From Bodo saltans (lineage: Eukaryota), in the NCBI GenBank assembly GCA_001460835.1, contig CYKH01000567.1:1-40665 (forward strand): a stretch of DNA of 40,665 nucleotides, given 5' to 3'. Position 1 is the first letter of the stretch. Every line of letters begins with the position of its first letter. The position numbers and the translations under genes were made by a program. Below, one piece after another: positions 20,862 to 40,054 of the stretch. The notes under the pieces are model-generated. The model searched no databases. It saw nothing but the letters and a program-made list of their open reading frames with translations, and was not told the origin of the DNA.

Positions 20862-21075
20862 TCACCAAGGGGTGAAAAAACACATTTGGTTTCCGTTTGA
20901 TTTATTGCGACTTGTATTGCGTTCAAAAAACACAAGAAAAACAACCCCGGTTTATTTACCTATGGTTTACTGCTAATCAACACCTCCTAAGGCTCTTTTT
21001 TTCCCAAGGAGTTCGGAGTGCTCCCGCTGTGAATGTCAGCTTTCATTCGAGCAAACGAATACCTCTCGACGTAAC

Positions 21076-22008: not shown

Positions 22009-22290
22009 CACGGTGATCCAATTTTTTGTACATTGTTAGCCAAGGAAGAGGTAGCCTTTTCGCTCAAAACAATGGTCTATAAAGAAATGCTGTACATTAT
22101 TCGCATTTGTCGTTTCGTCAAGTACTTAGAGAGAAGAAAGAAAGCCAGTGATCGTTTAATTTTTTGTTCATTTACTGCGGTCTACTATCTCCCCACCAAA
22201 CCGCAGGCACTTTTCTTCGTGGTTCAGCACCTCACAACAAGTCGCCTCAATCATCCTCATCGCCTACTTTCGTCATCGTCATTCACATTC

Positions 22291-23328: not shown

Positions 23329-23466
23329 ACACCTTTTTTTTGGCGACGGGACTAGGGCCCTTCCCCCAATCACACAAAGGGGTGCACTACTTGTCTACAC
23401 TTGCGCTACATTTCAATGAGGGCTTTCCTTCAACAACGAATGTTCTTTCATCTGAAACACTGCAGC

Positions 23467-23503
23467 GTCTCTCCTTTTTCTTCGTCTGTTGCATCTGAAA
23501 CAG
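23467..23503 (+). promoter_or_regulatory. Polypyrimidine tract (ctctcctttttcttcgtctgttgcatctg) and AG; candidate trans-splice acceptor for the MORN gene
   Basis: Read directly; AG at 23502-23503, 26 nt upstream of ATG 23529. An additional T8 run at 23334-23341 lies further upstream. Confidence 0.45.
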
Positions 23504-23528
23504 TGACCTTAGAGGTAGAATTTAAGAA

Positions 23529-25577
23529 ATGGCAATGAGCACCCTCGACGACGTGCAGGCTCCTCGCGAGTTGCAACCAGGTGAGGGGACGGCTGATGTC
23601 AAGATTGGAGCCTCGCAACCAGTTATGGTGTACGTCGTGAACCTCACTCGCCGGGCAGAGCTGACCATCGAGCTTCACGAGAACAACACCGCCTCCCGTT
23701 GCTCAATGTACATCTCAACGTCAGACCCACACCCCACTGCGAAGAGTGCCATGTGGGCATCTGAATCGGCACAGCCTCGGAAATCAGTCACAGTGCTTCC
23801 CGCTGACAGTCGTTATCACGAAGGTCCTTGCTACATTACCGTGAAGTACATGATGGCGACCGGAAATGTCTTTTTCTCACTTCGCACAAGAATGCGTGAG
23901 ACGTACGAGGCGGTGTGGTACACCAAGGCCAACCTCTCCTTGTATGAAGGCCAATGGTTCCAGCAGTACCGCCACGGGTATGGACGCTGCACTTACCAAC
24001 CACTAGCAGAATCCATCCCCTCTGAAACTTGCGTAGATCATTCACGCACCACTACTGGTAGCAGCGGACACGCGGTCTTAGACTTCAACACTGCTGAAGG
24101 CCCTGTCCTCTTGGACTTACCAACGGATGAGTCTCAAGTGTACGAAGGGGAGTGGAAAATGGGTGAGAAGGACGGCAATGGTGCCTACCAATGGCAGGAC
24201 AAGTGCTATGTCGGCAGCTGGCGTGGTGGCAAGCGCAATGGCAGAGGAACACTTACCAAGACCGACTCTTCTAAGTATACCGGTGAGTGGCGTGATGACG
24301 CCAAGAGTGGCTACGGGGTCCAATACTTCAACAACAACACGAGGTACGAGGGTGACTGGCATCGCAACAAACGGCACGGCCACGGACTTTTCGTGTACAA
24401 CACTGGTCTCAAGATTGTGGGCTCGTGGGAGCGTGATATCCTTGTGTCCGAGGTCACCGCGACGTACACCGATGGCACCACGTACGAGGGTGGCTGGCAG
24501 GACGATGCTCGTCACGGAGAACGCGGCGTGTTTAAGGACATCGACGGACTAGTCTACGAAGGTGCGTGGGTCCACGACAAGAAGCACGGCAAAGGCACGT
24601 GGCATCTTCCACGCAGCGTGAAATTCCGAGGGACATGGATCGACGATGTGCGACAAGACGAGGGCGGTGAGTTCATGTTCCCCAACCAAGACCTCTACAC
24701 CGGTGCGTGGGATGAAACCCGCCACGTACGTCACGGCCACGGCACTTGCAAGTACAACAACGGCGATGTCTATGTAGGCGACTGGCTGAATGATGAAATG
24801 TGTGGCAAAGGTCGCATGTCGTACGCGAACGGAAGTGAATACGTTGGCCAATGGAAGAGCAACAAACGTCACGGCAAAGGCAAATTTGCATCCTCCGATG
24901 GCAACTACGACGGAGAGTTTGCCAACGGTGTGCGCCACGGAACAGGTATCATGAAGTACAACGATGGTTCTTCGTACGATGGTGCGTGGGAAGAAGACGT
25001 TCGTCACGGCCCTGCAAAATATTTGAATGCCCAACTGAATATCTTCTACACCGTGACGTTCAAGAGCGATGTCATTAGTGGCCGCGGTAAGGCACAGTAC
25101 CGCAATAGCAACGAAGAGTATGAGGGTGACTTTGAGCGCAACCTTAGAAATGGGATGGGTACGTTCCTACTGTCCAACGGGGACCACTACACCGGCAGGT
25201 GGCAGGATGACCTTCGTGAAGACGGCGAGGGTACGTGCCAGTACGCCAACGGGGACAAGTACGAGGGAAGTTGGGTGGCAGAGCAACGCAGCGGTCGAGG
25301 CACGTGCTGGTACGCCGATGCAAGCCGTTATGAGGGAGAGTGGTCCGAAGATACGCAGAATGGAGAAGGCACCCTTTTCACGAGAAGCGGAGATCAAATC
25401 ACATCCCTCTGGGAGAACGGTGATCGTGTCGATGGCAAAGGCAAGTGTGTATTTGCCAATGGCAATATTTACGAAGGCGAATGGATGCACAACGAGCCTC
25501 ATGGCCACGGCACGCTTATTTATCCCGATGGCACTGTTTTTGATGGGCAATTCGACAAAGGGATCTACAAATTGTAA
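23529..25577 (+). CDS. MORN-repeat protein (about 20 tandem MORN motifs) with a non-repeat N-terminal domain of about 130 aa
   Basis: The ATG is at 23529, after a pyrimidine tract at 23467-23497 with AG at 23502. Iterated YEGEW/YVGSW/YTGEW...G.G units recur every 23 aa. Examples: YEGEWKMGEKDGNGAYQW, YVGSWRGGKRNGRGTL, YEGDWHRNKRHGHG, YVGQWKSNKRHGKG. The N-terminal region (DVKIGASQPVMVYVVNLTRRAELTIELHENN...) is distinct from the repeats. Confidence 0.85.
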   Translation: MAMSTLDDVQAPRELQPGEGTADVKIGASQPVMVYVVNLTRRAELTIELHENNTASRCSMYISTSDPHPTAKSAMWASESAQPRKSVTVLPADSRYHEGPCYITVKYMMATGNVFFSLRTRMRETYEAVWYTKANLSLYEGQWFQQYRHGYGRCTYQPLAESIPSETCVDHSRTTTGSSGHAVLDFNTAEGPVLLDLPTDESQVYEGEWKMGEKDGNGAYQWQDKCYVGSWRGGKRNGRGTLTKTDSSKYTGEWRDDAKSGYGVQYFNNNTRYEGDWHRNKRHGHGLFVYNTGLKIVGSWERDILVSEVTATYTDGTTYEGGWQDDARHGERGVFKDIDGLVYEGAWVHDKKHGKGTWHLPRSVKFRGTWIDDVRQDEGGEFMFPNQDLYTGAWDETRHVRHGHGTCKYNNGDVYVGDWLNDEMCGKGRMSYANGSEYVGQWKSNKRHGKGKFASSDGNYDGEFANGVRHGTGIMKYNDGSSYDGAWEEDVRHGPAKYLNAQLNIFYTVTFKSDVISGRGKAQYRNSNEEYEGDFERNLRNGMGTFLLSNGDHYTGRWQDDLREDGEGTCQYANGDKYEGSWVAEQRSGRGTCWYADASRYEGEWSEDTQNGEGTLFTRSGDQITSLWENGDRVDGKGKCVFANGNIYEGEWMHNEPHGHGTLIYPDGTVFDGQFDKGIYKL

Positions 25578-25815
25578 GAGTCTCCCGCACTCCCGTCGCC
25601 AAAGGGCACTGTTGTTATGTGTTGTACAAAAAACCTCGATGAGGGAGAAACAAGAGAAGAATAAACGACAATACTGGTGTACATGAATCAAGCTCCACTT
25701 CTCTGGAAACATAAACCGTCGATGAAACCCTGCATTTGGAAATTCGTTGCTTTTTTTCCCCCCAATTCTAAAAAAAAAAGGAGGCAGAACAGGAGACAGA
25801 ACGAACGTTGCACAC

Positions 25816-26847
25816 ATGTCATTCGAAGCCTCCAACAGTTACCTAGCGGGAGACGGGTATTCCCCCAGAAGACATCAGGAGCTCAGCGAAGATGAAGAAA
25901 TTCGTGTCTACCTGATGCAACTTGATATGCTGCGGCAAGAGTGCGAGCGCACAGGAAATTTTCTCAAAGCGCAAGAGTGCGTCAACCGAATGAGAGAGGT
26001 CAACCTCCGCTACGCCAAGAAGATCGACCTCCGCTCAAAGCAGTCTAACATCACCACCAAGCATCAAGTCAGTGAAGACCACAAGTTCGAACTCCTAACA
26101 TTTACTCGCATGTGGGAAGAAAAGATCAGAGAATACGATCAAAAAGGCGACATGATCGTTCACGATATCAAACGAGCACACATGGAAGACTACCGCAATC
26201 AAGAGGCGGAGCTACGGCTACAGATCATGAACCAGCGCCCTCGCTTTTCCAAAAAAGTCATGGAAGTACGTGACTTACTCGAGAAGTATGTCCTCCAGCG
26301 GCGCTACGTGGAGGCAGAGGGATTGAAGCAAATGCTTCTCAAGTTGGAGCAAGACGAGTTGGTTGCTTTTGACGATAAGCTTGCTGTGCAGTTTGAAAAG
26401 AAGTCCCACACAATGAAGCATCAATACGTCGTGGAGTTACGTGCGGCAGAGCAGAAGATCGCTCTTGGTCGAGAGGAGCTCTTACATCAGCGACAACTTG
26501 ACTTTGAGAGGCTCCTTAAGCGGCATTCCAAAGTCGTGAAAGATATCGATATGTCCACCAAGCTGCACGTATCGAAAACAAAGAATTACATTCAAAGCCA
26601 GATTAAGGCGCTCGTGTTGGACCCACTCAAAACAGGGATGGACTTAGGTGGCGTGGAGCGAACGTTCCGTGAGGGGCAGGGGAAGCGCGGCACGGAGCTC
26701 AGAGCTCAGTCGCCCTCCGCATCTGCGATGTCTAGCAGCGCTAGGCGAGCCAGGACGCCTCCCGCTTCAGCAGTTCGTCCAGGCTCCTCGTCAATGAGAG
26801 CACGATCTCCTGCAACGTCCCTCAGAGCAAGTGGATTTGCATGGTGA
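25816..26847 (+). CDS. Hypothetical coiled-coil protein with a Ser/Ala/Arg-rich C-terminus
   Basis: The ATG at 25816 (MSFEASNSY) lies downstream of a polyT/polyC tract at 25747-25770 and AG at 25779. The ORF-track start at 25747 falls inside that tract, so it is rejected. Heptad-like charged composition dominates (EEKIREYDQKGD, AELRLQIMNQR, LKLEQDELVAFDDK). The tail SPSASAMSSSARRARTPPASAVRPGSSSMRARSPATS looks like a phospho-site cluster. Confidence 0.5.
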   Translation: MSFEASNSYLAGDGYSPRRHQELSEDEEIRVYLMQLDMLRQECERTGNFLKAQECVNRMREVNLRYAKKIDLRSKQSNITTKHQVSEDHKFELLTFTRMWEEKIREYDQKGDMIVHDIKRAHMEDYRNQEAELRLQIMNQRPRFSKKVMEVRDLLEKYVLQRRYVEAEGLKQMLLKLEQDELVAFDDKLAVQFEKKSHTMKHQYVVELRAAEQKIALGREELLHQRQLDFERLLKRHSKVVKDIDMSTKLHVSKTKNYIQSQIKALVLDPLKTGMDLGGVERTFREGQGKRGTELRAQSPSASAMSSSARRARTPPASAVRPGSSSMRARSPATSLRASGFAW

Positions 26848-27008
26848 CCGGGTATCTCAGTTCAGTGGGGTTTATTGAATGTTGTGTTGTACCATTTTAT
26901 GACTCATCAAACGAATTTCAGATGACATTAGCCTTCATACATTGTTCGTTGCGATTCAATGCATTGTAAATTTATTTGACAAGATTTCTTAGACAGAGAT
27001 TACAGGAA

Positions 27009-29768
27009 ATGGGTATTGCCGGCTTTTATCTGTGGCTTCAACGCCACTACGCTAATTGCGTTGACGAGGTCCCCACCATCATTGATGAGACAGGAACCAT
27101 TCCTTCGGCCGCGAGGAATAATCTGCCTAGGTACGACAACCTCTACTTGGATATGAATGGCTTGATCCATCCGTGCTGCCACGATACCGCACCCCTCCCT
27201 GAGCCCGAAAGCGAGGAAGAAATGTTCGATCGTATTTTTGATCAAATCGATAAGTTGTTTCGCGTCGTCAGGCCCCGCAAGTGCCTTGTCCTGTGTATTG
27301 ATGGCGTCGCACCAAGAAGTAAAATGAACCAACAGCGCTCACGGCGCTTCCGTGCCGCACAGGAGCGTATCGAGAGCAACGACATTGCTAACGACTGCGC
27401 CGACTACATCGTTAGTGAGCACAAACTCCCCCGTCCACAGTTCAGAGAGCGTTGGGATCACAACGTCATCACCCCGTCGACCGCCTTCATGGAGCGCGTG
27501 GGGCAGTCCATCGAGTGGTTTTGCATGAAGAAAATCAATGAGGATCCAGAGTGGCGCAATATCACCGTGGTTTACTCCGATGCGCACGTTCCAGGCGAGG
27601 GGGAGCACAAGATCATGCATTACATTCGTGGTCTGAGAGCACAGCCTGGGTACAACCCAAGGACATCGCACTGCATTCACGGCATGGACGCTGACTTGAT
27701 CTGCCTTGGGCTCTCAACGCATGAACCAAACTTCGGCATTCTGCGTAACAAGCTTGGGGATGACTTCCAAGCAGTCCCAAATGAATTCTGCTACTTCAAT
27801 CTCACGCGTTTCCGTGAGCAGCTCAAAAAGGACTTCGAGAACATCAAAGACATGGATTTTGAGCGAGTCATTGATGACTTTGTGTTCCTTTGCTTCTTTG
27901 TCGGCAACGATTTTCTTCCGCACATGCCGCTGATTTCCATCAAGACGAAAGGCATAGAAGCCATGCTTGACCATTACGTCCGGTGCTTCGACGACAATGG
28001 CTATCTCACCAAACGAGGAGAGGTTAAGTTTGATGGCGTGAAGAGGTTCCTCAAGTCGTTTCTTGCCTCCAAGCTCGAAGTTCTCAAGAAGGAGTACGAC
28101 GGAAAGAAACGGGCGGCCGACAGAGCCAAGGGTCATGTCAAGGAACGTGTCGACAAATGCCAGAAAGAGATTGAATACATCGCTGAATCCGTCTCGTCGG
28201 ACAAAGCAACAGAGGAGGAGCGCCAGATTGCCAGCAACAAGCTTCTGTCGCTCTATTCTACCATCAAGAAGGAAGAGCTGCGCTTTGTGGCCGGACGCTT
28301 CCCACTCACGTTTTCCTACAGGAAGCCGGAAGATAGAGATGCGTATTACGTTGCCAAGTTTGGCTGGTCTACCGAGGATCGCCAGCGCTTCGAGGCAAAT
28401 GTTCGTCAGTGCTGCGCGGAGTTCTTGCGTGGCATGCAGTGGGTCATGCGGTACTACACCAAAGGGTGCCCCTCTTGGGAGTGGTTCTACCCCTTTCACT
28501 ACACGCCGCTGCTTCAAGACCTTGCGCTGAACTGTGACTCAGTAAATGTGGAGATGAAGATTGGAGAGCCCCTTCACCCTGTTGAGCAGCTCCTTGCCGT
28601 CCTCCCACGCCAGAGCGTCAGCGCACTGCCTGAAGAACTACACGAGGCAGTTGAGGACCCCAAATCTGTCCTGGCTAAGTTTTACCCCGACACATTCGAG
28701 ATTGACTTCACCGAGGCCAATTTCTCCTACCAAGGGATCGCCCAGCTGCCGTTCATCAACTGTGTGAAACTCCGTGAGGCCTGCGCTGAATTGGTCGAAC
28801 TTGAGGAGGACTTTGGCACGACGCTTATCTTCGCGCATCAAAAGTCGCGAGTGAGCCAAGAACTTGAGAAGCTAATTGGAACGTCTGCAGCGTCTGTCCC
28901 TCTCAATGAACACATCGTACGTGTGTGTCCATTAGCTGGTCGTGTTGCACGCTATCCCAACGCGTGGCCTCTTCAAGCCCGCGTCGAGTGCCCAGATAGC
29001 GGTATCGCCAACTACCCAGGAGGTCGCTTCTCGGGGGAAATTGCCGACAATCAAGCATCGTGTTTTGCCTATGAACTCAACACACACGCTGATTATTTGC
29101 AAGAACTGTTGCAGAAGCCAAGCGGCAAGGGCGATGGAAAGGCCATCCATAAAGCGCGTTCACCTGGAGCCTCACACGCCAAGCAGCAAAGCCGTGACGG
29201 ACAACGCAACGCCAAGCCAACGAAGCGTGAGCGAAGCAATAGCCCTCGAGGGTCACGACCATCAAGCAGCTCCAAGAATCATCGGGATGAAACCAAGTCG
29301 AGTTCTCGCGTCGACGATCGTGGCTCAAAGCGCGATGACAACAGGCGCCACTCTGATGATATCAAGCGCCACTCTGACAATCACAGCGATCGCCACGATG
29401 ATCGAAGCAGCCGCCGCGACGATCGCAGTAGACGAGATGAAAAACGAGGTGATAAACATCACCGCAGTGATCGATCTGATCGTGATGACGGTCACGCACA
29501 GAAGAAGCATCGAACGGAATCCTCTCACGGCTCTCATGCTGCTGGCCCACTAGTTCGCCCTTCTCCACTGCATTCGTCGTTCTCGATATCACAGATGCAG
29601 TCCCCGATTGTATTGGACTTTTCGTCCCAGCCGCACCCTGGTGCATCTGACTTTCAGGAACCGGTCTTGATTCGTCCAAAGGAGCACCACCACGCCGGCA
29701 GCAGTAACACAAGCGACAAACGCGGGGGTGATGACCGCCGGCGAGATCAGGGCAAGCGTCGCTATTAG
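27009..29768 (+). CDS. 5'-3' exoribonuclease, XRN family, with an Arg/Asp/Ser/His-rich C-terminal tail
   Basis: The N-terminal catalytic signatures match: MGIAGFYLWLQRHY (XRN MGVPKFFRWL), LYLDMNGLIHPCCH (LYLDMNGIIHNC), LCIDGVAPRSKMNQQRSRRFR (identical to the consensus). The ORF track over-extends 11 codons upstream, and the conserved Met is at 27009. The C-terminus shows RDDRSRRDEKRGDKHHRSDRSDRDD repeats. Confidence 0.88.
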   Translation: MGIAGFYLWLQRHYANCVDEVPTIIDETGTIPSAARNNLPRYDNLYLDMNGLIHPCCHDTAPLPEPESEEEMFDRIFDQIDKLFRVVRPRKCLVLCIDGVAPRSKMNQQRSRRFRAAQERIESNDIANDCADYIVSEHKLPRPQFRERWDHNVITPSTAFMERVGQSIEWFCMKKINEDPEWRNITVVYSDAHVPGEGEHKIMHYIRGLRAQPGYNPRTSHCIHGMDADLICLGLSTHEPNFGILRNKLGDDFQAVPNEFCYFNLTRFREQLKKDFENIKDMDFERVIDDFVFLCFFVGNDFLPHMPLISIKTKGIEAMLDHYVRCFDDNGYLTKRGEVKFDGVKRFLKSFLASKLEVLKKEYDGKKRAADRAKGHVKERVDKCQKEIEYIAESVSSDKATEEERQIASNKLLSLYSTIKKEELRFVAGRFPLTFSYRKPEDRDAYYVAKFGWSTEDRQRFEANVRQCCAEFLRGMQWVMRYYTKGCPSWEWFYPFHYTPLLQDLALNCDSVNVEMKIGEPLHPVEQLLAVLPRQSVSALPEELHEAVEDPKSVLAKFYPDTFEIDFTEANFSYQGIAQLPFINCVKLREACAELVELEEDFGTTLIFAHQKSRVSQELEKLIGTSAASVPLNEHIVRVCPLAGRVARYPNAWPLQARVECPDSGIANYPGGRFSGEIADNQASCFAYELNTHADYLQELLQKPSGKGDGKAIHKARSPGASHAKQQSRDGQRNAKPTKRERSNSPRGSRPSSSSKNHRDETKSSSRVDDRGSKRDDNRRHSDDIKRHSDNHSDRHDDRSSRRDDRSRRDEKRGDKHHRSDRSDRDDGHAQKKHRTESSHGSHAAGPLVRPSPLHSSFSISQMQSPIVLDFSSQPHPGASDFQEPVLIRPKEHHHAGSSNTSDKRGGDDRRRDQGKRRY

Positions 29769-29850
29769 AGCAGAAGTTTTATTGAGTTTTTGCTTCCACC
29801 GATTAAATTTTGAGCAACATGCAGTCTTAAGCGAGAAAAGAATACATGTT

Positions 29851-29945
29851 ATGCCTTGTTGTTTTGATGCACTTCCTGTTGCCTTTTGCATCCACTCTCA
29901 CCATCATCTGTGTGTACATTTTTGTTCCATTTTTGTATAGATCAG
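29851..29945 (+). promoter_or_regulatory. Long (about 80 nt) pyrimidine-rich tract with AG dinucleotides at 29938 and 29944; candidate acceptor for the cNMP-domain gene
   Basis: tgccttgttgttttgatgcacttcctgttgccttttgcatccactctcaccatcatctgtgtgtacatttttgttccatttttgt, then atagatcagac, then ATG 29948. Confidence 0.45.
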
Positions 29946-29947
29946 AC

Positions 29948-32656
29948 ATGCCAGTAAAACGCTCCGTACGACAAATTGTAGCCCAGCAACCTCCAGCTCA
30001 ACCTCCGTCGCGTACGGCAGTAGATGCTCAAGTGGACACTTGCTCCCCTCGTAGTGACAATTCTGCCAGGAAGAAAAGTCGCGCAAAGTCGATGATGGCT
30101 TTGGGTGACGGAGCACCGCATGGGAGGTACGGCCACGCCGTGACGGTTCTCAAGCGTGTGGCGAAGAAATTAGTGTTGGGTGATCGGCTCGATATGGGTG
30201 CAACGACCAACGATCCACTGAGGCAGCTGCGGAGACGTCACATGGCCCCGTTCTCTGCCATTTCTCCGTATGTTCGAGTTCGTCGAATGCTTGACCCTGT
30301 GCACCATCGCCACCTCCTGGGCAGTGATGTCCTGCAACCCTCATCATCCTCGTCTGCGCGCCGCATCAGCGAGGGAGCGGTCGGCCTTCCGATGGATCGC
30401 CTCCACGAAGACGATTCCAGCGAGCTTTGTGAGTCCACCGCCTTCATTCCGGACAAAGAAGTGCCCCTGGCCAGTGTAATGATTCCTCTTGAGGATGACT
30501 CCAAGGCAATTCACTTTGCGGATGTTAGCAGCATGTCCGCATCTGTGAATGCCCTTCACCGATCGGTGATGATGAGTAGGAATTCCATCAGCAAAGGTAT
30601 GGAAGGGGGTCGAGAAGGGAACACCAATGCAAAAGATACCAAGCATGGCGGCGGTAGTGAAGAGGAGCTTCGCAACCCACCACTCCCCCCTGGCTCAGAG
30701 ATTTCATCGCTCCCACAAGAACTTGCTGTCACGTTTTACACCGAAGCGAAACAGCGACTACGAACACTCTTCCTCCCACGCGTGCTGTTTTTGCTCGAAC
30801 GCAAACGGCGTCGTGCAGTTGAGTCTGAAATGGCTCGACGTGCATCGCGCCCATCTGGTGATGCCCTCAAGCGGTTCAAGCTGTTCGCACACTGGCCCGC
30901 AGAAGCGCTTCAGCAGGCCGTAGACCTCATGACATACCAGCATGTAGAAAGCAATCGGTTCATTTGGTATACTGGTGAGCCTGGTGGTACGCTTGGCATG
31001 GTGTTGATCTCACACGGACAATGCCGCTCGATGCGCAACACGATGCGTGACAGTGGGGAAAAGCGACTGACGACGGAGAGCGCCGTCATGCTGGCGACGC
31101 ATGGTCCTGGCCACTTGTTCAACGAGTACAGTTTTGTCACGCAGGAACCGCAGATGCGATATGTGAAGACATTGACTCGCTGTGATTTGTTCTGCCTGAG
31201 TCGTGAAGACTTTGAAACCTGCTGCGCAACAGTAACGGAAACTGTCCGCGCGCATATGACGCATGCGGCGTTTGTCCGAAGACAGAAAATGATTCCTGAA
31301 GCGTATCCGTTTTATCCACAACTGCTGCGAAAGCAGTGTCCCGTATTTGCTAAAAGCTCCGACGCAATTTTATCCCTTATTATTCAGAGCATGAAACCTC
31401 TGGCCAGCGGATCACAATTTCTGATCTCAAGCATAGGAGAAACCCCAAGTCAAATTTTCTTTTTGAGACGGGGCAAGGTGGGTGGGTACCAGGATGTCGA
31501 CGGTGCCTCCACGCATGTTCGATCGTACTATGGGCCCTCAACTCTTCTCGAGTCTTGCGTGATCCACAGACAAGAAAATTTAGAACTGCTGAGAACACTT
31601 TCGGACTGCGACTTCTTGGTGCTGTCGCTGGAAGATATTTATGGCATCATGGCCCTCCATCCGTCTGAAAGGGATATCTTACTCGATGTGTCGCGTGAGG
31701 AAAAGATGAAAATTCTTTCCAAACAGCAGAAGCGATATCGTCCACTGATTTATCAAATTCCAATTATCCGGCAACTTCTAGAGGGTGAGCAGATCAACGC
31801 TCTCTCACACCTTTTCGAAGGACGTGTGTACGCAGCGATGGACATTGTGGCATCCAAGTCGGACACTTGTGATCGAATTATCATTCTCACCAAAGGGCAG
31901 GTGTCCTTCGGCGTCAAAGGAGCAGAATGGGCACCAGGCGACAGTATTGGGTACACTTGCCTTTTGCAGCATCGCTGGTCGCACAGTGTCGTTGCTCTGC
32001 AGCAAACGGAGTGCATTGAACTTCGCCGAGACCTGTTTGAAGCATTTATGGAAGATTGTGGCCTCTTGAATGATGCCATGGACGTTACGGAACTCATGAT
32101 GTGCCCCACTAAAGTGAAATTGCTACAGCGAGAGCGCAAGTTGGTGGACAATGGAGTGGTTCTGACCGAAGACGTTAGACAGGAGCTACGATCGCAAGTG
32201 CTAGCACCCCTTCGAAAAGCTCCAGCCAACAGCACCGCCACCACTGCAGATGCCAAAGATTCTGTTCACAAAGGCAATGACGCGATGACATCTTACTTCC
32301 ACCGCCCCAGCCGTAAGGCCACTGAGCAGCAGGCACGACGACATCGTCTCTTAGGGTTGCTCAATAGTGTCGAACATGACATTGAGGCGATGATTACTCC
32401 CAGATGTTATCCTCTCTCGATATCAATGGACGGGCTTCGCCAACGCAGCCACCGCGCTATTACAGAGCCCGGCTTCGTGGAGTGCCGTCCTCAATTCCGC
32501 CTCACAGATACTTCAGTCCCTGGCGGCCTCCACACACCACTTCTGACGGAACGAGACAAGGAAGAGGCGTTATCAAATGCACTCTTTGCCTTAAAGCGTG
32601 ATCCTGTAAAGCGGGTATCAAAAATTACCCCCTTCTTGATGGTGAAACAGAGATGA
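29948..32656 (+). CDS. Protein composed of three degenerate cyclic-nucleotide-binding (CNB, cNMP-binding-like) domains with no attached catalytic or channel domain; candidate cAMP-response or effector protein
   Basis: The ATG at 29948 (MPVKRSV) follows an 80-nt pyrimidine tract at 29851-29930. Three segments fit the CNB phosphate-binding-cassette layout: GHLFNEYSFVTQEPQMRYVKTLTRCDLFCLSREDFE; SQIFFLRRGKVGGYQ...GPSTLLESCVIHRQENLELLRTL; IIILTKGQVSFG...GDSIGYTCLLQHRWSHSVVALQQTECIELRRDLFEAF. I recognise no kinase, channel, cyclase or PDE motifs. The ORF-track start at 29846 sits inside the pyrimidine tract. Confidence 0.6.
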   Translation: MPVKRSVRQIVAQQPPAQPPSRTAVDAQVDTCSPRSDNSARKKSRAKSMMALGDGAPHGRYGHAVTVLKRVAKKLVLGDRLDMGATTNDPLRQLRRRHMAPFSAISPYVRVRRMLDPVHHRHLLGSDVLQPSSSSSARRISEGAVGLPMDRLHEDDSSELCESTAFIPDKEVPLASVMIPLEDDSKAIHFADVSSMSASVNALHRSVMMSRNSISKGMEGGREGNTNAKDTKHGGGSEEELRNPPLPPGSEISSLPQELAVTFYTEAKQRLRTLFLPRVLFLLERKRRRAVESEMARRASRPSGDALKRFKLFAHWPAEALQQAVDLMTYQHVESNRFIWYTGEPGGTLGMVLISHGQCRSMRNTMRDSGEKRLTTESAVMLATHGPGHLFNEYSFVTQEPQMRYVKTLTRCDLFCLSREDFETCCATVTETVRAHMTHAAFVRRQKMIPEAYPFYPQLLRKQCPVFAKSSDAILSLIIQSMKPLASGSQFLISSIGETPSQIFFLRRGKVGGYQDVDGASTHVRSYYGPSTLLESCVIHRQENLELLRTLSDCDFLVLSLEDIYGIMALHPSERDILLDVSREEKMKILSKQQKRYRPLIYQIPIIRQLLEGEQINALSHLFEGRVYAAMDIVASKSDTCDRIIILTKGQVSFGVKGAEWAPGDSIGYTCLLQHRWSHSVVALQQTECIELRRDLFEAFMEDCGLLNDAMDVTELMMCPTKVKLLQRERKLVDNGVVLTEDVRQELRSQVLAPLRKAPANSTATTADAKDSVHKGNDAMTSYFHRPSRKATEQQARRHRLLGLLNSVEHDIEAMITPRCYPLSISMDGLRQRSHRAITEPGFVECRPQFRLTDTSVPGGLHTPLLTERDKEEALSNALFALKRDPVKRVSKITPFLMVKQR

Positions 32657-32877
32657 TGGGGTAGGTGCGGCACGTCGTTTTCCCGCTGATGTGAAACAAA
32701 CGACAACGACAAGGTGAGTACCAACCAATTGTGTATATTTCAGTGTGTAAATGGAAAAGAAACGTGATCTTGAGTAGAAGTGTCGAAGTTGGAGTTGCTT
32801 TGAGCACTTGCAATTTACTTTTCATCGAGAAGGTAAAGAAAGAATCCGCTATCATCTCTTGAAGGGATTTCACATTT

Positions 32878-33450
32878 ATGCCCCACATTGTCTCATCTCT
32901 TATTATCCTTCTGGCCGTTGGTGCGACCTTAACGCCATTTCTTGCTGATGCAGCCATCAAACAGCTCACTGTGCACGAGCGCTTGAAGTATGCTCGCCAC
33001 GTGTTTGTAGGAACGGTGGAGTCCGTAGAATTCAAAGACATCGACAGAGCCCCACAGTTTCCAGAGTGGATCACGCGCCATTACAAATGTGTGGTACGTG
33101 TGGATCGAGTCGTAAAGTCGAACAAACATTCTCGGCCAAATCCAAGTCACCCTGCCGATGAGTTGGTGGAGGGCCCCCTTGTGCACCTCATGGCGTGGAA
33201 GGGCATTGGCCGGCCTGCAGGCTTTGTAGGTGACTCTGGGACGGCAACGATCCCGGAAGTAGGAAAGACCTACGCGTTCTACACCCAATTCCTCCACCCC
33301 GACCCACAGTTGCGATCTACGTATCATGAATCGTATCCTCATGTTGAAGAAGAAGAGTTCAAGGCGTACAATGCGCTGATGCCGAATGGAATCGGGGAAC
33401 TAGCTGAACTGTTAGACCACGAAGCGGAGGATGCTCACGCAGAATTGTAA
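32878..33450 (+). CDS. Small hypothetical secreted protein (190 aa) with an N-terminal signal peptide and an acidic C-terminus
   Basis: The ATG at 32878 opens MPHIVSSLIILLAVGATLTPFLADAA, a signal-peptide-like stretch. The rest looks globular. The C-terminus ELLDHEAEDAHAEL is acidic. I recognise no family. Same strand and spacing as its neighbours. Confidence 0.4.
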   Translation: MPHIVSSLIILLAVGATLTPFLADAAIKQLTVHERLKYARHVFVGTVESVEFKDIDRAPQFPEWITRHYKCVVRVDRVVKSNKHSRPNPSHPADELVEGPLVHLMAWKGIGRPAGFVGDSGTATIPEVGKTYAFYTQFLHPDPQLRSTYHESYPHVEEEEFKAYNALMPNGIGELAELLDHEAEDAHAEL

Positions 33451-33487
33451 ACTAAACAACTCTTTGCTCGCCTTCTTCTTGAAGATT

Positions 33488-33550
33488 GCTTTTCGCGCCA
33501 TCCCCACTCGTCGAATTCATCATTGCGCTGATTATTTTTCCCTTTACAAG
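33488..33550 (+). promoter_or_regulatory. Pyrimidine-rich tract and AG; candidate acceptor for the LRR/H1-tail gene
   Basis: gcttttcgcgccatccccactcgtcgaattcatcattgcgctgattatttttccctttac, then AG at 33549-33550. ATG is at 33595. Confidence 0.4.
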
Positions 33551-33594
33551 AACAACCATTACATCATCGAAGCACACACATTTTAGCCAGATAC

Positions 33595-35013
33595 ATGGAG
33601 CTTGCCGGGTATGCTTCTGGGGGCCACATGCGCTCGGATTTTTCTGACTTCGACTTGAAGAATGCCGCCGAAATGGAAGCTCACATTAACATGAACGCAA
33701 CTGCGGCAAAGATCAACTTTGACAAGTACTACAAAGAGAGGCTGAACGATCCGTCGCGACTTTGGCGCGAAGTTCGTCGCCGATTGGACGTCCGAGATGT
33801 GCTTGAGGTGCCCGCTCTTGTCCTCGATGTCGGTGTCCCAAAGTTTGACTACACGTCTATCGGCCAATTATTTAGCCAAAAGCTTTTGGAACGTGAGAAG
33901 AACAAGGAGGCTAGAGCGGCTGATGGAAATCCTGAGGCGTCTCTGACAGTGAACGTGAAGATGAACATGAATGATCCCTTTAAACTGGTGCTATCCGGCT
34001 GTGACTACACCAACCTGGATAAGGTAGTGAGCAGCATCGTCAGCAACCAGGAGATCACTCACTTGAGCTTCGCAAACAACGGCCTTGACACGGATGACTG
34101 CGAAGCTCTTGCAAAATTCATCGCGTCCAACACCACAGTTGTCGCTTTGGATCTCAGCGGAAACAAACTTGGCGGCGAGCAGATCCAGAAGCTAGCGGAT
34201 GCACTGGCAAAGAATTCCACCATCACGGATCTTGACTTAGGAGCAAATGGCCTTGCAAAGTCTGCTGCAAAAGCGTTCGCTGCCGCCATTTCCGTTCCCA
34301 CGTGTCAAGTGTCGCGCCTGCAGCTTGCTGGAAACGCTCTTGGTATCTATGGAGTGGAGGAGCTAGCGGTTGGTCTCAGGCAAAACACAAGCATCAAGGC
34401 GTTGGGCCTGCAAAACAATAACATTGGTAACGATGGAGCACAAAAGCTCCTCGACGTGTTGCCGGGGAAGGGGCAGAGTATCGACGAAGTATTTGCGGAT
34501 GGCTCGCTTCCAATCAATGACGTAGACGGTAGCGGCGTCGCCACAGAAAAGAAGTTTAACACTTCACTTGTCCAAGTCAGCATCGAAGCAAATCGTGTGG
34601 ATGACAGCCTCGCTCTCGCCGTAGCGACAGGCACGTGGCTCAATGAACAGGTGCAAATGCGGCGACATATGATTCGGCTGGAGACGGAAGCCCGCGCAAT
34701 GTTGGAAGATGTTGATCCTGAACTTGATGCCCTTCGACTATTCTTCGCGAAGGCGACATCTGAGCTTGTTGCTGCATTAGCAGCAAAAGCAGCTGAAGCA
34801 GCAGCAGCACCAAAAGCAGCACCAGGGAAATCAGGTGCGAAAGGCCCCGCTGCAAAACCATCGCCCGCTGGTGGTGCTCGAAGTGCTTCTAAATCGCCTG
34901 TGAAAGCTGCTCCCGCCAAAGGAAAAGCACCACCTCCACCGGCAGCGTCGACCAAAGTCAAGGCTGCTGCGGGAGCAGGTCGCACGCCGTCCCCGAAAAA
35001 AGGTGGAGCGTAA
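33595..35013 (+). CDS. Leucine-rich-repeat protein of ribonuclease-inhibitor (RNI) type, fused to a C-terminal Ala/Lys/Pro-rich histone-H1-like tail
   Basis: About 28-aa LRR units: ITHLSFANNGLDTDDCEALAKFIASNTTVVALDLSGNKLGGEQIQKLADALAKNSTITDLDLGANGL...LQLAGNALGIYGVEELAVGLRQNTSIKALGLQNNNIGNDGAQKL. The C-terminal 80 aa, AAKAAEAAAAPKAAPGKSGAKGPAAKPSPAGGARSASKSPVKAAPAKGKAPPPPAASTKVKAAAGAGRTPSPKKGGA, carries an SPKK motif. A pyrimidine tract at 33488-33548 with AG at 33549 lies upstream. Confidence 0.75.
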   Translation: MELAGYASGGHMRSDFSDFDLKNAAEMEAHINMNATAAKINFDKYYKERLNDPSRLWREVRRRLDVRDVLEVPALVLDVGVPKFDYTSIGQLFSQKLLEREKNKEARAADGNPEASLTVNVKMNMNDPFKLVLSGCDYTNLDKVVSSIVSNQEITHLSFANNGLDTDDCEALAKFIASNTTVVALDLSGNKLGGEQIQKLADALAKNSTITDLDLGANGLAKSAAKAFAAAISVPTCQVSRLQLAGNALGIYGVEELAVGLRQNTSIKALGLQNNNIGNDGAQKLLDVLPGKGQSIDEVFADGSLPINDVDGSGVATEKKFNTSLVQVSIEANRVDDSLALAVATGTWLNEQVQMRRHMIRLETEARAMLEDVDPELDALRLFFAKATSELVAALAAKAAEAAAAPKAAPGKSGAKGPAAKPSPAGGARSASKSPVKAAPAKGKAPPPPAASTKVKAAAGAGRTPSPKKGGA

Positions 35014-35085
35014 CCACGGTATGTACTTTGCCAAGCTTCCACACTACATTTTCGTCTGGCACTTGGATCTTTCATTCATACACGC

Positions 35086-35110
35086 ATGTTTCCGTTGTTT
35101 CTCCTGAAAG
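35086..35110 (+). promoter_or_regulatory. Polypyrimidine tract (catgtttccgttgtttctcctg) and AG; candidate acceptor for the ABCC transporter gene
   Basis: Read directly; AG at 35109-35110, 55 nt upstream of ATG 35165. Confidence 0.4.
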
Positions 35111-35164
35111 CTAACATCTAACAGTAGTTCTAGTTAACATCTAACAGGATCAATCTTTAAAAGA

Positions 35165-38100
35165 ATGCGTGACGCGCTTGCCCACTTCTTTGCGGTCACA
35201 GCCGCAGTGGTGAGCATCAGCTCTGATCTTATTCTCTGGTGGATGGCATCAGGTATTTGGAAGAATCGTCAGCTACCAACTTCACATTACACTGAAATTG
35301 GTTTGCGATTCGTTGTAGCATTTACGATGATTGCCTACGCCTCGCACACCCAACAGCAAGCGATGATCATTGCATGCATTTCAGCGGCGCTTGCATCTGC
35401 GCTCTTGTGGCTCTCTCACTGCCGTAGGCTCGTGCAGAGCAAATCCATTGGTGAAACGCAATGTCATGTAATCGCGTTCGCCTTCTCCATTCTCCTTGTG
35501 ATGTGTATTGTCATGTTCTTCATGAAATGCACGATCGTCGGGTGCATTGTGGTGGCCGCAGGTTTTGCTGTGCTGAGCCTCATCAGTGCCGCAATGAGGT
35601 CCATTGGGCCTCAACCACCCTCGCAAAGCCTCGACGGAGATGAAGTCATTCATGGAGGCCGCCTGATTGCTGCAGTGTTATGGCTGCTCTACAGTTGCGT
35701 TGAGGGCGACATCTGCGTTGCCGTCGTGTACACCATCATTTTGATGGCGTCCGCAGTCGCACTTTTTGCACGCATCGCGAATCTCACCCTTCCTCCCAAG
35801 GCTACCACCAGTCCTTCACACATGTGGGGTGCTGAGCCGCTGTATCACATGAGTCGTGAGGATGATGCTTCGCTTTGGGACTTGCAGTCGTTTGCGTGGG
35901 TGGAAAGCTACGCAACAGCTGCAGCAGATGAGACTCTGACACCGACCACTCTACCCCCACCACTACTGGGGTCCCGCACCTGGGATCTTGGAAGGAAGCT
36001 TGAAGCTCAAATGAAACAAGAGCTTGACATGTACCACCTCTGGGATTCGCGCGCTCTTGCAGGAGACGATGTCAGTGCTAAGTGGGACGCCACCAGCCGT
36101 GGCAACATGCGTTGGGTCGGTTGTATTTCTCGCTCCCCCAACCCCACTCAAATGATGGTGGGCATTGAATGGACCATCAAGCCAACAACGCATGCTGGAC
36201 TATTCGCACCTGAGTTCCACAACGGAACGTTTGAAGGAGAATTTCTTTTCGCCGAAGAGAACAAAGGGAGCTCTTACAACTCATCGTGCATTCCCGCTGA
36301 TGAGGTGGTGTTGCTCTGTTCTGCTGCAGATGAGTCAAATGCTCGTCCCCAGTATCCTTCCGTGGTTCGTGCTCTTTTTACTGCGACCTGGTCTCAAATC
36401 TGGGTTCAGGCTCCGTTCCGAGTGACAGCCGATATCTGCATGCTGAGCTCACCTATTGTTCTTGAAGCTTTTGTGAAATTCCTGAATTCGGATGATCCCT
36501 GTGTCACAAACGGCGTCATGCTGTCTGTTCTGATTTTTGTCCTTGGAGTGATTCAAAGCTCGCTTCTGCATCGTTACTACCACCTCAGCATCCGGTGCGG
36601 AATCGCGCAACGCAATGCTGTCCTTGGGGTCCTCTTCGCTAAGTGCTTTAGCATTTCCCCGAAGTACCTCGCTCATCCCGACATGGGGCCTGGCCGAGTG
36701 GTCAACATGGTCAGCAGCGATGCCGAGAGATTCAACGACTTTCAGCAAATGCTTCTTTACTTTTGGAGTTACCCATTTCAGATCGTTTGCGGAATTGCTC
36801 TGCTCTATCGCCTCGTGGGTTGGTGCGCAGTGGGCAGCATCGTTGCGCTCTCCGTTTCTATTCCCCTTCAGAGAAAGGTCGCGCAACTTCAGCACAAGTA
36901 TCGCCTCGAGCTCGTGAAAACCTCTGACTTGCGCGTCAAGCTGACGAACGAACTTTTTGGTGGTATTCGTGTTGTGAAGTTCATGGGGTGGGAGCTCAAT
37001 TTCCTTGAGCGTCTCGAGCAGCGTCGCTCACAAGAACTCGTTTTTTTGAAGAAATCTCACGACTGCAGAATTCTTGCCGCCCTTGTCACCGCTGCCACAC
37101 CAGCCATGCTTGTCGCAGTGGTGTTCATTCTCTACTACTTGAGTGGCAACACACTCACTCCAGAGGTGGTATTTCCCACCATCTCTGTGCTGAATATTCT
37201 CCGCATTCCATTCATGATGATTCCCAATCTGTTCACCGCGCTCATTCAATTCTCTGTCGCAGCAACCAGAGTCACCAAGTTCTTGATGAGTGAAGATCAA
37301 TCCGACCTTGCCATCACGAACATTGACGAATACATAGCCGATGTACCCTCTGCTAAAGGCGCGTCCATCGTCTTCGATAATGCAACCCTTTGCGCGTACC
37401 TCCCAACTAAGCTGCCTGCAGCAGAACGAACGTTACCACGAGAGAAAACTCTTCGAAACGTGCTTCTGCCTTGCGCGCCATCGAAGCCAAAATGTTTTAC
37501 ACCGTCAGGAAGTTACTTTGTGATGGAGCTCAGGGCTTTACTTAAAAACGTCTCAGTGCGCTTCCCGAAAGGGAAACTCACAGTGATACTTGGACCTACA
37601 GGCTCTGGAAAATCGACGTTGCTTGAAGCGGTGCTTGGGCAGCTGTACTTGTCTGAGGGTCAAATTGCAGCGGCCGACTCAATTGGGTTTGTCCCGCAGC
37701 AACCTTGGATCATGAACGCAACTGTGAAAGAGAACATCGAATTCTTTTCTCCTGTGGATGAAAAGCGCCTCACAACTGTCCTTCGGACTTGCCAGCTAGA
37801 CACAGACGTGCAAATGCTCCCTGGTGGACTTGAGACTGAAATTGGTGAGCGGGGTGTCAATTTGAGCGGCGGACAGCGAGCCCGTGTGAGTATGGCACGA
37901 GCAGTGTACGCCAGACGTGATGTGTATCTCCTCGACGATCCCCTTTCAGCACTGGATGCGCACGTTGGTGCCGCTCTTCTGAGCGACTGTATTCTCGGCA
38001 CCCTCGCATACTCCACAAGAATTCTTGCCACTCATCATGCACATGTGCTCCCAAAGGCTGATTACATCATTGAACTGAACCTCGATGGATCGATCAAATT

Positions 38101-40054
38101 CTCTGGCACATACCCTGAGTACTCAGGAGTACACCCCAACGATGACATCAATGCTGCAACTCCAACCGGGCGCTCACATGCAACCCAGATTCCCTTCTCA
38201 CCCAAAGAAGAGCTCCAACAAGTGTGTGCAAAACTCACTTCGAAAGAAGAAAAGGCATCTGGAAGTGTCCCGCTGGCCACATACATCGCGTATTTCAACG
38301 CTTGTGGTGGACTGCTTCGCATGTTGCTAGTTGTCCTCGTATTTTTTGCGACAGAGTTCTTGCTTGTTTCCAACACGATTTGGCTGTCGCTCTGGTCAGT
38401 GCAAACCATGTCGTTGTCTCAGATAACATATCTGCTTGTGTACCTTCTTGTGATCACCATTGGCATTATCTCTGCTCCGCTGCGTTATCGTGTCGCGTAC
38501 GACGCAATGCGCACAGGCTCGTTCCAACTTCATGCTGGTCTCCTTCGCTCGGTCATCCGAGCACCCATGTCGTTCTTCGACACGACACCGTTAGGGAGAA
38601 TTTTGAATCGATTTGTTCAAGATATCGACCAGGCCGACAATGGACTTCAACTCAGCATCGTCAGCATGCTGCAAATGCTGTTTTCAGCACTCTCAACGAC
38701 GTTGATCATGCTCGTCTCTCAACCAGGAGTCATTCTAGTGATCCTTCCGTGCTTCTATGTCTATTACCGTCTCCTCATTTTTTACAACGCAGCCAATCGA
38801 GAGGCGCGTCGAATTGGAAACGTTGTCAATTCGCCTGTGACATCGTTGCTGACAGAAGTCTTGCATGGAGTGAAAACAATCTGTGCTTTTAAGAAAGGAG
38901 ACGTCATCATGCTGGAAGCTACAAAGAGGCTCGACGTGACATATTCTGCAGCGTATCTACAAAACGTTCTTAACCGGTGGCTTGGCCTTCGTATTGAACT
39001 CATTGGAACTGCAATTATTGGAGCAGTTGCTCTTGGAACTGCGCTGAGCAAGGTGTTCAGTTTCGGAACGCCAAACATCGCGGTACTGTCACTTGGGCTC
39101 ACAACGTCGACAACGATCACAACAATGCTGAACTGGATAGTACGTCAAGTGTCTGCAGTGGAATCGGATATGAACAGCATTGAGCGTATTCTCTACTACA
39201 GCGATTCCATCGAGCAAGAAAACCTTGAGTTGGCCCCGTGTCAACAAACGAAGGCTGTTCTGAAAGACACCTCTATGGTTTTCAAAGACGTTGACATGAA
39301 ATATCGCGAAGATCTTCCGTTAGTCCTACAACGACTGTCATTCACCGTCAACTGCAACGAAAAAGTTGGAGTGGTGGGGCGGACTGGCAGTGGCAAATCA
39401 AGTCTTCTGATGACATTCTTACGGATCGTCGAAATTTGCGGAGGATCCATTACCATCGGTGGCGTCGCTGCATCATCAATGTCTCTCGCTCAGCTCCGTG
39501 GTCTGTTTTCAATGATTCCCCAAGATCCGATCCTGTTCGATGGAACGATACGGTCGAACCTGGATCCGTTTGGACAGCACGGTGATGCAGATGTTGTTGA
39601 AGCTCTGGTACTTGTTGGCATGCAAGAGAAAGTGTTCGAAGATCCACTTGGAATTCAACGTGTTGTGCTTGATGGGGGCTCCAACTTCAGCGTTGGACAA
39701 CGCCAACTCCTTTGCATGGCCCGAGCGATTCTCAAGAAAGGATGCGAATTTATCTTAATGGACGAAGCAACAGCAAACATTGACCCAGATATGGATGCTC
39801 GAATCCAATCAGCTGTGAAAACTGCATTTGCTACCAAAACGGTGGTCACCATCGCACATCGAATTCAAACAATGACAGCCTATGACAAGGTCATTGTTAT
39901 GGACCACGGCGAAGCGGTTGAAATTGGCTCTCCGCAAACACTTTTCTTGAACCGCACCTCACGCTTCCGCGCCCTTGTTGAAGCGCAGGAAGGAACCGCT
40001 AAAGAAGAAGTTATTGGTGTGTTAGACCCAACCCACAACCAATCGCAGCAATAA
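35165..40054 (+). CDS. ABC transporter, ABCC/MRP subfamily, full-length (TMD0-L0-TMD1-NBD1-TMD2-NBD2)
   Basis: Two nucleotide-binding domains are present. NBD1 has Walker A GPTGSGKSTLLEAVLG, signature LSGGQRARVSMARAVY and Walker B VYLLDDPLSALD. NBD2 has VGRTGSGKSSLLMTF, a degenerate signature FSVGQRQLLCMARAIL and Walker B FILMDEATANID. Two 6-helix TMDs plus an N-terminal multi-helix TMD0-like region of about 430 aa are typical of long MRPs. A pyrimidine tract at 35086-35107 with AG at 35109 lies upstream. Confidence 0.92.
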   Translation: MRDALAHFFAVTAAVVSISSDLILWWMASGIWKNRQLPTSHYTEIGLRFVVAFTMIAYASHTQQQAMIIACISAALASALLWLSHCRRLVQSKSIGETQCHVIAFAFSILLVMCIVMFFMKCTIVGCIVVAAGFAVLSLISAAMRSIGPQPPSQSLDGDEVIHGGRLIAAVLWLLYSCVEGDICVAVVYTIILMASAVALFARIANLTLPPKATTSPSHMWGAEPLYHMSREDDASLWDLQSFAWVESYATAAADETLTPTTLPPPLLGSRTWDLGRKLEAQMKQELDMYHLWDSRALAGDDVSAKWDATSRGNMRWVGCISRSPNPTQMMVGIEWTIKPTTHAGLFAPEFHNGTFEGEFLFAEENKGSSYNSSCIPADEVVLLCSAADESNARPQYPSVVRALFTATWSQIWVQAPFRVTADICMLSSPIVLEAFVKFLNSDDPCVTNGVMLSVLIFVLGVIQSSLLHRYYHLSIRCGIAQRNAVLGVLFAKCFSISPKYLAHPDMGPGRVVNMVSSDAERFNDFQQMLLYFWSYPFQIVCGIALLYRLVGWCAVGSIVALSVSIPLQRKVAQLQHKYRLELVKTSDLRVKLTNELFGGIRVVKFMGWELNFLERLEQRRSQELVFLKKSHDCRILAALVTAATPAMLVAVVFILYYLSGNTLTPEVVFPTISVLNILRIPFMMIPNLFTALIQFSVAATRVTKFLMSEDQSDLAITNIDEYIADVPSAKGASIVFDNATLCAYLPTKLPAAERTLPREKTLRNVLLPCAPSKPKCFTPSGSYFVMELRALLKNVSVRFPKGKLTVILGPTGSGKSTLLEAVLGQLYLSEGQIAAADSIGFVPQQPWIMNATVKENIEFFSPVDEKRLTTVLRTCQLDTDVQMLPGGLETEIGERGVNLSGGQRARVSMARAVYARRDVYLLDDPLSALDAHVGAALLSDCILGTLAYSTRILATHHAHVLPKADYIIELNLDGSIKFSGTYPEYSGVHPNDDINAATPTGRSHATQIPFSPKEELQQVCAKLTSKEEKASGSVPLATYIAYFNACGGLLRMLLVVLVFFATEFLLVSNTIWLSLWSVQTMSLSQITYLLVYLLVITIGIISAPLRYRVAYDAMRTGSFQLHAGLLRSVIRAPMSFFDTTPLGRILNRFVQDIDQADNGLQLSIVSMLQMLFSALSTTLIMLVSQPGVILVILPCFYVYYRLLIFYNAANREARRIGNVVNSPVTSLLTEVLHGVKTICAFKKGDVIMLEATKRLDVTYSAAYLQNVLNRWLGLRIELIGTAIIGAVALGTALSKVFSFGTPNIAVLSLGLTTSTTITTMLNWIVRQVSAVESDMNSIERILYYSDSIEQENLELAPCQQTKAVLKDTSMVFKDVDMKYREDLPLVLQRLSFTVNCNEKVGVVGRTGSGKSSLLMTFLRIVEICGGSITIGGVAASSMSLAQLRGLFSMIPQDPILFDGTIRSNLDPFGQHGDADVVEALVLVGMQEKVFEDPLGIQRVVLDGGSNFSVGQRQLLCMARAILKKGCEFILMDEATANIDPDMDARIQSAVKTAFATKTVVTIAHRIQTMTAYDKVIVMDHGEAVEIGSPQTLFLNRTSRFRALVEAQEGTAKEEVIGVLDPTHNQSQQ

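Follow-up and report, generated by a model that had tools for sequence, protein, structure and literature searches.

A gene on the forward strand of a 40,665-nucleotide stretch of Bodo saltans DNA (contig CYKH01000567.1; hereafter the window) encodes a 902-residue, stand-alone protein of three tandem cyclic nucleotide-binding (CNB) domains, here called A, B, and C. The best explanation that we can offer for this protein is that it belongs to a bodonid clade within a triple-CNB family of Euglenozoa, is a paralog of CARP1, and may work as a ligand-controlled adaptor; taken as a whole, we give this explanation about an even chance of being right. The CNB assignment of the gene is already in the public annotation, and the family is already known through the Trypanosoma brucei protein CARP1 (Tb927.11.16210, UniProt Q381G5; hereafter TbCARP1). 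An initial annotation, made from the DNA letters, had set the gene in the context of trypanosomatid signaling; its source is a free-living bodonid kinetoplastid, and that framing holds just by extension.

Three CNB folds and their ligand-contact residues

Over the whole protein, the Pfam family PF00027 is matched in three stretches (84.2 bits, E 6.3e-24; cut-off 27.5 bits). No other Pfam family is found even at E ≤ 10, be it kinase, channel, GAF, phosphodiesterase (PDE), or guanine nucleotide exchange factor (GEF), which bears out the initial description of a stand-alone three-CNB protein with no kinase, channel, GAF, or PDE module. The N-terminal 290 and C-terminal 162 residues, scanned separately, contain no significant Pfam family, and a search of residues 1-290 for RIIa or any other Pfam domain was negative as well. 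Taken segment by segment, the PF00027 match holds for domains A and C, each of which passes the gathering score, but not for domain B, which alone falls below the threshold (Table 1); aligned with domain A by hhalign, domain B gives a probability of 99.9%. The eight-stranded β-barrel with flanking helices that characterizes the CNB fold is present, and the β-strands expected of the three segments are seen for A, B, and C in an AlphaFold2 (AF2) core model built from a 72-sequence alignment. This core model is the one used here; a full-length 902-residue AF2 model from a two-sequence alignment had a pLDDT of 30.7, was uninformative for the N-terminal region, and was discarded.

The ligand-contact columns of the phosphate-binding cassettes, canonically Gly-Glu...Arg, were read in three ways: by ungapped HMMER alignment to solved CNB domains, in the 72-sequence family alignment, and by hhalign among the three domain profiles. 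Domain A reads F-N392-E393-YSFVTQE-P401-Q402-M-R404 where the family as a whole has G-E-FSFLTEE-P-R-M-A as its consensus; site A is fully canonical in 58 of 133 family members. The initial annotation had considered the cassettes of domains A and B to be weakened, which is correct for the Gly and Arg columns (Asn392 and Gln402 in domain A, Leu534 and Asn544 in domain B) but not for the Glu column, where Glu393 and Glu535 are kept.

Domain C is the least canonical of the three at the ligand-contact positions. It reads G668-Y669-TCLLQ-H675-R676-W677, and both HMMER alignment to PKA RI-alpha and profile-profile alignment place Tyr669 at the Glu column and Arg676 one to two residues N-terminal of the Arg column; the latter is occupied by Trp677 itself in hhalign, and by Trp677 or a gap over the two alignment methods. 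The cassette had at first been thought best retained in this third domain, on the strength of a match between RWSHSVVAL and RSATVVA. That register needs an extra insertion, which neither alignment supports, and the claim cannot be upheld. Across the family, Gly668 is present in 133 of 134 sequences, and Tyr, Phe, or Trp stands at position 669 in 114; His675 is found in 112, Arg or Lys at 676 in 124, and Trp677 in 128 of 132. By these counts, the motif G-[YFW]-T-C-x3-H-R-W is the hallmark of the family, and domain C is its most conserved feature.

A family across Euglenozoa and its relation to CARP1

An exhaustive HMMER search over 1.84 billion representatives returned 251 relatives at E ≤ 1e-3, 52 of which reach E ≤ 1e-30. 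Almost all relatives are collinear with the window protein over residues 241-721, where a conserved lead is followed by CNB-A, CNB-B, and CNB-C. An earlier word-index search with the full protein had matched just the Bodo entry and P0002, a bodonid homolog from a Logan assembly that is the nearest relative (about 50-51% identity across the whole protein); relatives at 25-35% identity were evidently missed. All 13 clusters that bear an organism name (14 listed hits) are euglenozoan, with kinetoplastids (Bodo, Papus, and Apiculatamorpha), diplonemids (Namystynia, Hemistasia, and Sulcionema), and euglenids (Euglena, Entosiphon, and Ploeotia) among them. No trypanosomatid name appeared in 30 cluster look-ups, a result that does not show absence from trypanosomatids because the names are those of 90% clusters and the hits those of 50% clusters. 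Several species have more than one copy, and the family is therefore a multi-paralog one. The sequence comparisons indicate that CARP1 is one branch of this large triple-CNB family across Euglenozoa, and TbCARP1 appears to be part of the same family as the window protein.

In a neighbor-joining tree of 116 sequences, drawn without support values, the window protein groups with P0002, P0003, P0004, P0008, and P0017, all from metagenome or SRA assemblies. The sister group of this clade is formed by prokinetoplastids plus diplonemids, and P0141 (described below) and the euglenids are in a distant clade. The six members of the window protein's clade share motifs at both ends of the protein. The N-terminal one runs APF..S.Y..VR.LLDP..H.HL across the clade, within an otherwise poorly conserved region, and seven of its residues (Pro101, Phe102, Arg112, Leu115, Pro117, His122, and Leu123) are invariant. 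The tail carries EPGFV (residues 840-844) and GGL (residues 859-861), and ITPFLMVKQR stands at the very end of every member. To judge from their sequences, the N- and C-terminal motifs look like docking motifs. Separately, the N-terminal RRRH.APFS was considered as a PKA-type inhibitor site and rejected, because it is ~200 residues N-terminal of CNB-A and the residue at its P-site differs between the two bodonids.

The closest known system is TbCARP1, with which T. cruzi TcCLB.508523.80 is grouped; besides TbCARP1, we found no other characterized triple-CNB protein. TbCARP1 has 705 residues and three predicted CNB domains, of which CNBD-A is canonical (R320) and CNBD-B and CNBD-C have Lys459 and Tyr629 at their Arg positions; its EC50 (half-maximal effective concentration) for cAMP is 32 nM (PMC10354285). 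Knockdown of CARP1 gives 117-fold resistance to a PDE inhibitor (PMC3811416). CARP1 has been reported throughout Euglenozoa and is part of the flagellar proteome of Euglena; most CARPs localize to the axoneme (PMC10354285).

Published residue numbers and domain limits of TbCARP1, together with two primer-derived terminal peptides, served as landmarks to scan our hits. By these landmarks we picked P0141 (720 residues, Logan assembly), which is a proxy for TbCARP1 and not the TbCARP1 sequence itself. In P0141 the spacing from Arg332 to Arg470-Lys471 is 139 residues, equal to that in TbCARP1; domain C has 'HQY', with Tyr638 at the Arg position and a spacing of 167 versus 170 residues in TbCARP1, and contains an insert of ~34 residues; the tail is 82 versus 76 residues long; and the C-terminal 'KEF...' resembles the primer-derived KEFMAKR of TbCARP1. 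The closest matches of P0141 are P0137, P0101, P0098, and an Entosiphon sequence (P0104), with Euglena (P0131) and Ploeotia (P0116) lower and the window protein 64th in the list. In the CARP1-like clade of P0141 and P0137, of which the Euglena, Entosiphon, and Ploeotia sequences are also members, cassette A is canonical and cassette B carries Arg-Lys or Arg-Arg; the Arg position of cassette C is occupied by Tyr, and domain C is interrupted by an insert that varies. Its euglenid members fit the published presence of CARP1 across Euglenozoa.

The window protein resembles TbCARP1 in its layout, an N-terminal lead followed by three CNB domains in tandem with neither a catalytic nor a channel module, in being restricted to Euglenozoa, and in having domains B and C off the cassette consensus. 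In both, moreover, the Arg position of domain C is taken by an aromatic residue, Tyr629 in TbCARP1 by structural superposition (PMC10354285) and Trp677 here. In other respects the two differ. Where TbCARP1 has landmarks of 139 and 170 residues, the ~34-residue insert in domain C, and a 76-residue tail, the window protein has 142 and 134 residues, no insert, a 224-residue tail, and end motifs of its own. TbCARP1 has a canonical cassette A and demonstrated cAMP binding, whereas the canonical CNBD-A cassette of the CARP1 ortholog group is absent from the window protein, which has Asn392 at the Gly column and Gln402 at the Arg column. Against the window protein, diplonemid and prokinetoplastid proteins score E values of 1e-57, versus 1e-9 for the CARP1-like proxy. 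Given the distance in the tree between its bodonid clade and the CARP1-like one, the gene is most likely a paralog of CARP1 in the same family and not its ortholog. The label "CARP-like" in the initial annotation is thus apt at the level of the family, by the layout and the domain C aromatic of the CARP1-like proxies, but probably wrong at the level of orthology, by the landmarks, the clade, and the rank of 64th.

A proposed ligand-controlled adaptor and the alternatives

In our preferred explanation, the protein would be an adaptor that is controlled by a ligand and has no catalytic activity itself. The sole plausible ligand site would be domain A, which keeps the ribose-contacting Glu393, with Asn in place of the cassette Gly and the phosphate-contacting Arg apparently shifted two residues downstream (Pro-Gln-Met-Arg404). 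Domain B, having lost both Gly and Arg, would be degenerate. Domain C, with aromatic residues at both ligand-contact positions, would be a structural or partner-binding module that does not bind cyclic nucleotides. The motif at residues 100-123 and the ITPFLMVKQR end might dock the protein to partners, which by analogy with CARP1 could be flagellar or cytoskeletal.

The question of whether site A has decayed or been re-wired turns on its conservation. The 21-residue stretch around cassette A (residues 388-408) is 90% identical to P0002, versus 65% for domain A and 51% for the whole protein. Among the six clade members, Asn392 is present in five and Pro401 in all. One of them, P0008, retains Asn-Glu...Pro-Arg, and in the three clade sequences closest to the window protein the canonical Arg is absent and an Arg is found at +2 (PQMR, PQMR, and PASR). 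Of the residues other than glycine, Asn tolerates a glycine-type backbone best, and it is the usual substitute for a Gly of positive phi, and in an extended segment residues i and i+2 face the same side. Because cassette A is so strongly conserved, Glu393 is kept, and Arg occurs at +2 in three related sequences, the pattern fits a compensated shift of the Arg better than it fits decay. A larger conjecture, which we think doubtful, is that the bodonid clade has re-wired the one ligand-competent site of the family (Gly to Asn, Arg to +2) and that domain C, with a self-filled pocket, is the output or partner surface of the family, CARP1 included. If this were true, the re-wired site A would take up its ligand with a novel geometry, or would accept another nucleotide or a nucleoside instead, and would represent a second independent re-tuning of a CNB domain in kinetoplastids, beside that of the PKA regulatory subunit (PKA-R).

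Several points weigh against the adaptor explanation. By HMMER, the family alignment, and hhalign alike, none of the three cassettes contains the full Gly-Glu...Arg set. For this reason cAMP binding by the window protein is uncertain and should not be taken as a likely default; cyclic-nucleotide binding may be lacking altogether. Further, the paralog assignment rests on the proxy P0141 and on the neighbor-joining tree described above. The incompleteness of all cassettes is what would be expected if the three CNB folds were a pseudo-sensor or scaffold that binds no cyclic nucleotide and is purely structural or adaptor-like, in the manner of the CNB-homology domains of KCNH channels or of large multi-CNB structural proteins, and the family profile finds its best PDB match in a multi-CNB protein, Toxoplasma PCR12. 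This reading is possible, but we consider it rather unlikely: no other stretch of domain A is as conserved between the bodonids as cassette A, the retained Glu393 and the Arg two residues off its canonical spot in three related sequences resemble compensation, and there are sister clades in which site A is fully canonical.

Site A might instead be a re-tuned receptor that recognizes not cAMP but another ligand, such as a nucleoside or a different nucleotide, parallel to trypanosome PKA-R. Precedent exists, in that Trypanosoma PKA is described as cAMP-independent and as binding nucleoside analogs after changes of cassette Arg and Ala residues (PMC6440977), and PDB entries 6h4g, 6hyi, and 6hyq are, by their titles, for nucleoside binding by Trypanosoma PKA-R. 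In the window protein, Gln stands at the Arg column, and three consecutive residues depart from the family consensus (EPQMRY versus EPRMAS) and are conserved in P0002. On the other hand, an Arg is kept at +2, and an anionic group is therefore arguably still bound; the substitutions are also unlike those of trypanosome PKA-R. A receptor of this kind seems distinctly unlikely to us. Least probable of all, and very unlikely in our judgment, is that the gene is the true ortholog of CARP1, the B. saltans counterpart of Tb927.11.16210, and that the trypanosomatid copy has diverged fast. The shared layout and the domain C aromatic are compatible with this, as are the short basic C-terminal motifs of the two proteins (FLMVKQR versus the primer-derived KEFMAKR), and CARP1 has been reported in all kinetoplastid genomes as 'conserved in synteny' (PMC3811416). 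But the non-canonical CNBD-A, the differences in spacing, insert, and tail, and the E values given above all argue otherwise, and the TbCARP1 landmarks are reproduced by another clade, that of P0141. As for gene order, which lends orthology no clear support, an XRN gene lies directly 5' of the CNB gene in both bodonids, whereas in T. brucei, for which the gene order at hand is partial, the neighbor of TbCARP1 is Tb11.01.7880 (CAP17) and the six T. brucei XRN genes all lie elsewhere.

Gene model, locus, and wider setting

Read from the sequence, the open frame that encloses the gene begins at 29846, ahead of the ATG at 29948. Translation of this extension is rich in Leu, Phe, Pro, and Ser, as expected from a T/C-rich tract, and the AG that ends the tract is six bases 5' of the ATG; the segment is probably a kinetoplastid-type trans-splice acceptor region and not coding. 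Because the tract and AG just 5' of it resemble such an acceptor, ATG 29948 is a sensible start, and its Met lines up with the Met of 'MTVKK' in P0002. The product is 100% identical to the NCBI protein 'cyclic nucleotide-binding protein, putative [Bodo saltans],' which in the public annotation starts at ATG 30092, 48 codons downstream, and has 854 residues. Since the in-frame ATG 29948 follows the tract and AG and aligns with the Met of the homolog, the annotated protein may be missing 48 N-terminal residues.

Table 1. Features of the triple-CNB gene and of its neighbors, in window coordinates
Feature	Residues	Coordinates	Strand	Remarks
MORN-repeat protein	682 aa	23529..25577	+	Two genes 5' of the CNB gene; Pfam E 1.8e-80, nine stretches; 73% identity to counterpart in the other bodonid
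XRN-family 5'-3' exoribonuclease		26976..29768	+	XRN_N and XRN1 helical domain; long low-complexity C-terminal tail rich in Arg, Asp, Ser, and His
Pyrimidine-rich tract with terminal AG		29846..29942	+	Immediately 5' of ATG 29948; seen in the sequence, putative function
Coding sequence of triple-CNB protein	1-902	29948..32656	+	902 aa plus stop codon
N-terminal region	1-240	29948..30667	+	No known domain; 23-32% identity to P0002
Clade-specific motif APFSxxSPYxxVRxxLDPxxHRHL	100-123	30245..30316	+	Six clade members
Conserved lead	241-304	30668..30859	+	LPxGxE..LPxEL motif, then long helix (aa 257-298 in model)
CNB domain A	305-430	30860..31237	+	Pfam 37.4 bits, E 2.5e-9; PKG I-beta CNB-A alignment; AF2 strands aa 329-417
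Cassette A, FNEYSFVTQEPQMRYV	391-406	31118..31165	+	Glu kept; Arg404 two residues after the Arg column
CNB domain B	455-575	31310..31672	+	Pfam 18.9 bits, E 1.5e-3; AF2 strands aa 483-560
Cassette B, LLESCVIHRQENLELL	533-548	31544..31591	+	Leu534 at Gly column, Glu535 kept, Asn544 at Arg column
CNB domain C	600-720	31745..32107	+	Pfam 40.2 bits, E 3.3e-10; AF2 strands aa 624-693
Cassette C, IGYTCLLQHRWSHSVVA	667-683	31946..31996	+	Tyr669 at Glu column, Trp677 at Arg column; shorter than canonical cassettes
C-terminal tail	721-902	32108..32653	+	Helices to about aa 750, then variable stretch
Extreme C-terminal motif ITPFLMVKQR		32624..32653	+	At the very end of every clade member
190-aa open reading frame	190 aa	32878..33450	+	Hydrophobic, signal-peptide-like N terminus; no Pfam match; 56% identity at equivalent position on the other bodonid contig
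Leucine-rich-repeat (LRR) protein		33595..35013	+	LRR_6; long Ala/Pro/Lys-rich C-terminal tail; 66% identity in the other bodonid
ABC transporter	1629 aa	35165..40054	+	Full-transporter layout with two transmembrane and two ATPase domains; no long gene follows it in the window

Over the window (1..40665), all long open reading frames that are not nested in a longer plus-strand frame lie on the plus strand, with short spacers and a GC content of 0.48-0.56. As a sequence pattern, this arrangement is the signature of a single kinetoplastid polycistronic transcription unit. The P0002 contig and the window have a common order of eight genes (kinase, Ras-like, MORN, a protein of 331-366 residues, XRN, CNB, a protein of 183-190 residues, and LRR), and the genes flanking the CNB gene are 47-73% identical between the two. 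The 190-residue open reading frame that follows the CNB gene is probably a real gene, because it is conserved at the equivalent position in the other bodonid contig. With respect to the MORN-repeat neighbor, T. brucei CARP10, which came out of the same cAMP-resistance screen as CARP1, is a 653-residue axonemal MORN-repeat protein (PMC10354285).

Among other CNB systems, the PKA regulatory subunits share tandem CNB folds with the window protein and are among its top structural and sequence matches, and the cAMP-independent, nucleoside-binding PKA-R of Trypanosoma is a kinetoplastid precedent for re-tuned cassettes. PKA-R differs from the window protein in having two CNB domains, a dimerization/docking domain, and an inhibitor site that binds the kinase subunit. 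In PKG, Epac, and CNG-HCN channels the CNB domains are joined to a kinase, GEF, or channel pore, and the array of four CNB domains in Plasmodium PKG, of which one is degenerate, is likewise attached to a kinase; the window protein, in contrast, has PF00027 alone and no effector domain. T. gondii PCR12 (TGME49_219070, PDB 9ya0), the PDB entry whose sequence the family profile matches best (E 3e-66), resembles the window protein in its many tandem CNB domains and in having no recognized enzymatic module among its matched parts. But PCR12 is a 2736-residue apicomplexan protein with another number of repeats and no sign of specific relatedness, and it scores so highly because its repeats are summed. 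In 9ya0, PCR12 (chain MA) has at least five CNB-like repeats and 12 copies per entry, a large multi-CNB protein in a structural assembly. Stand-alone CNB-domain proteins as such also occur in metazoa, for example CNBD2/CRIS; the initial claim that the gene has no metazoan counterpart stands for the three-CNB layout but not for stand-alone CNB-domain proteins in general.

In kinetoplastids the downstream effectors of cAMP are poorly understood and PKA is unresponsive to cAMP, and the CARP screens have provided two validated cAMP-binding proteins, CARP1 and CARP11. The B. saltans gene is an uncharacterized paralog with an unusual first cassette, and its value is mainly as a comparative test of which residues are required for ligand binding; it is not a medical target, because its clade appears limited to free-living bodonids. 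The new points are modest: the apparently shifted Arg of site A and the HRW-type third domain as a hallmark of the family. More broadly, a multi-paralog family with a conserved, non-canonical third domain gives a context for studies of CARP1 and offers pointers to mutants.

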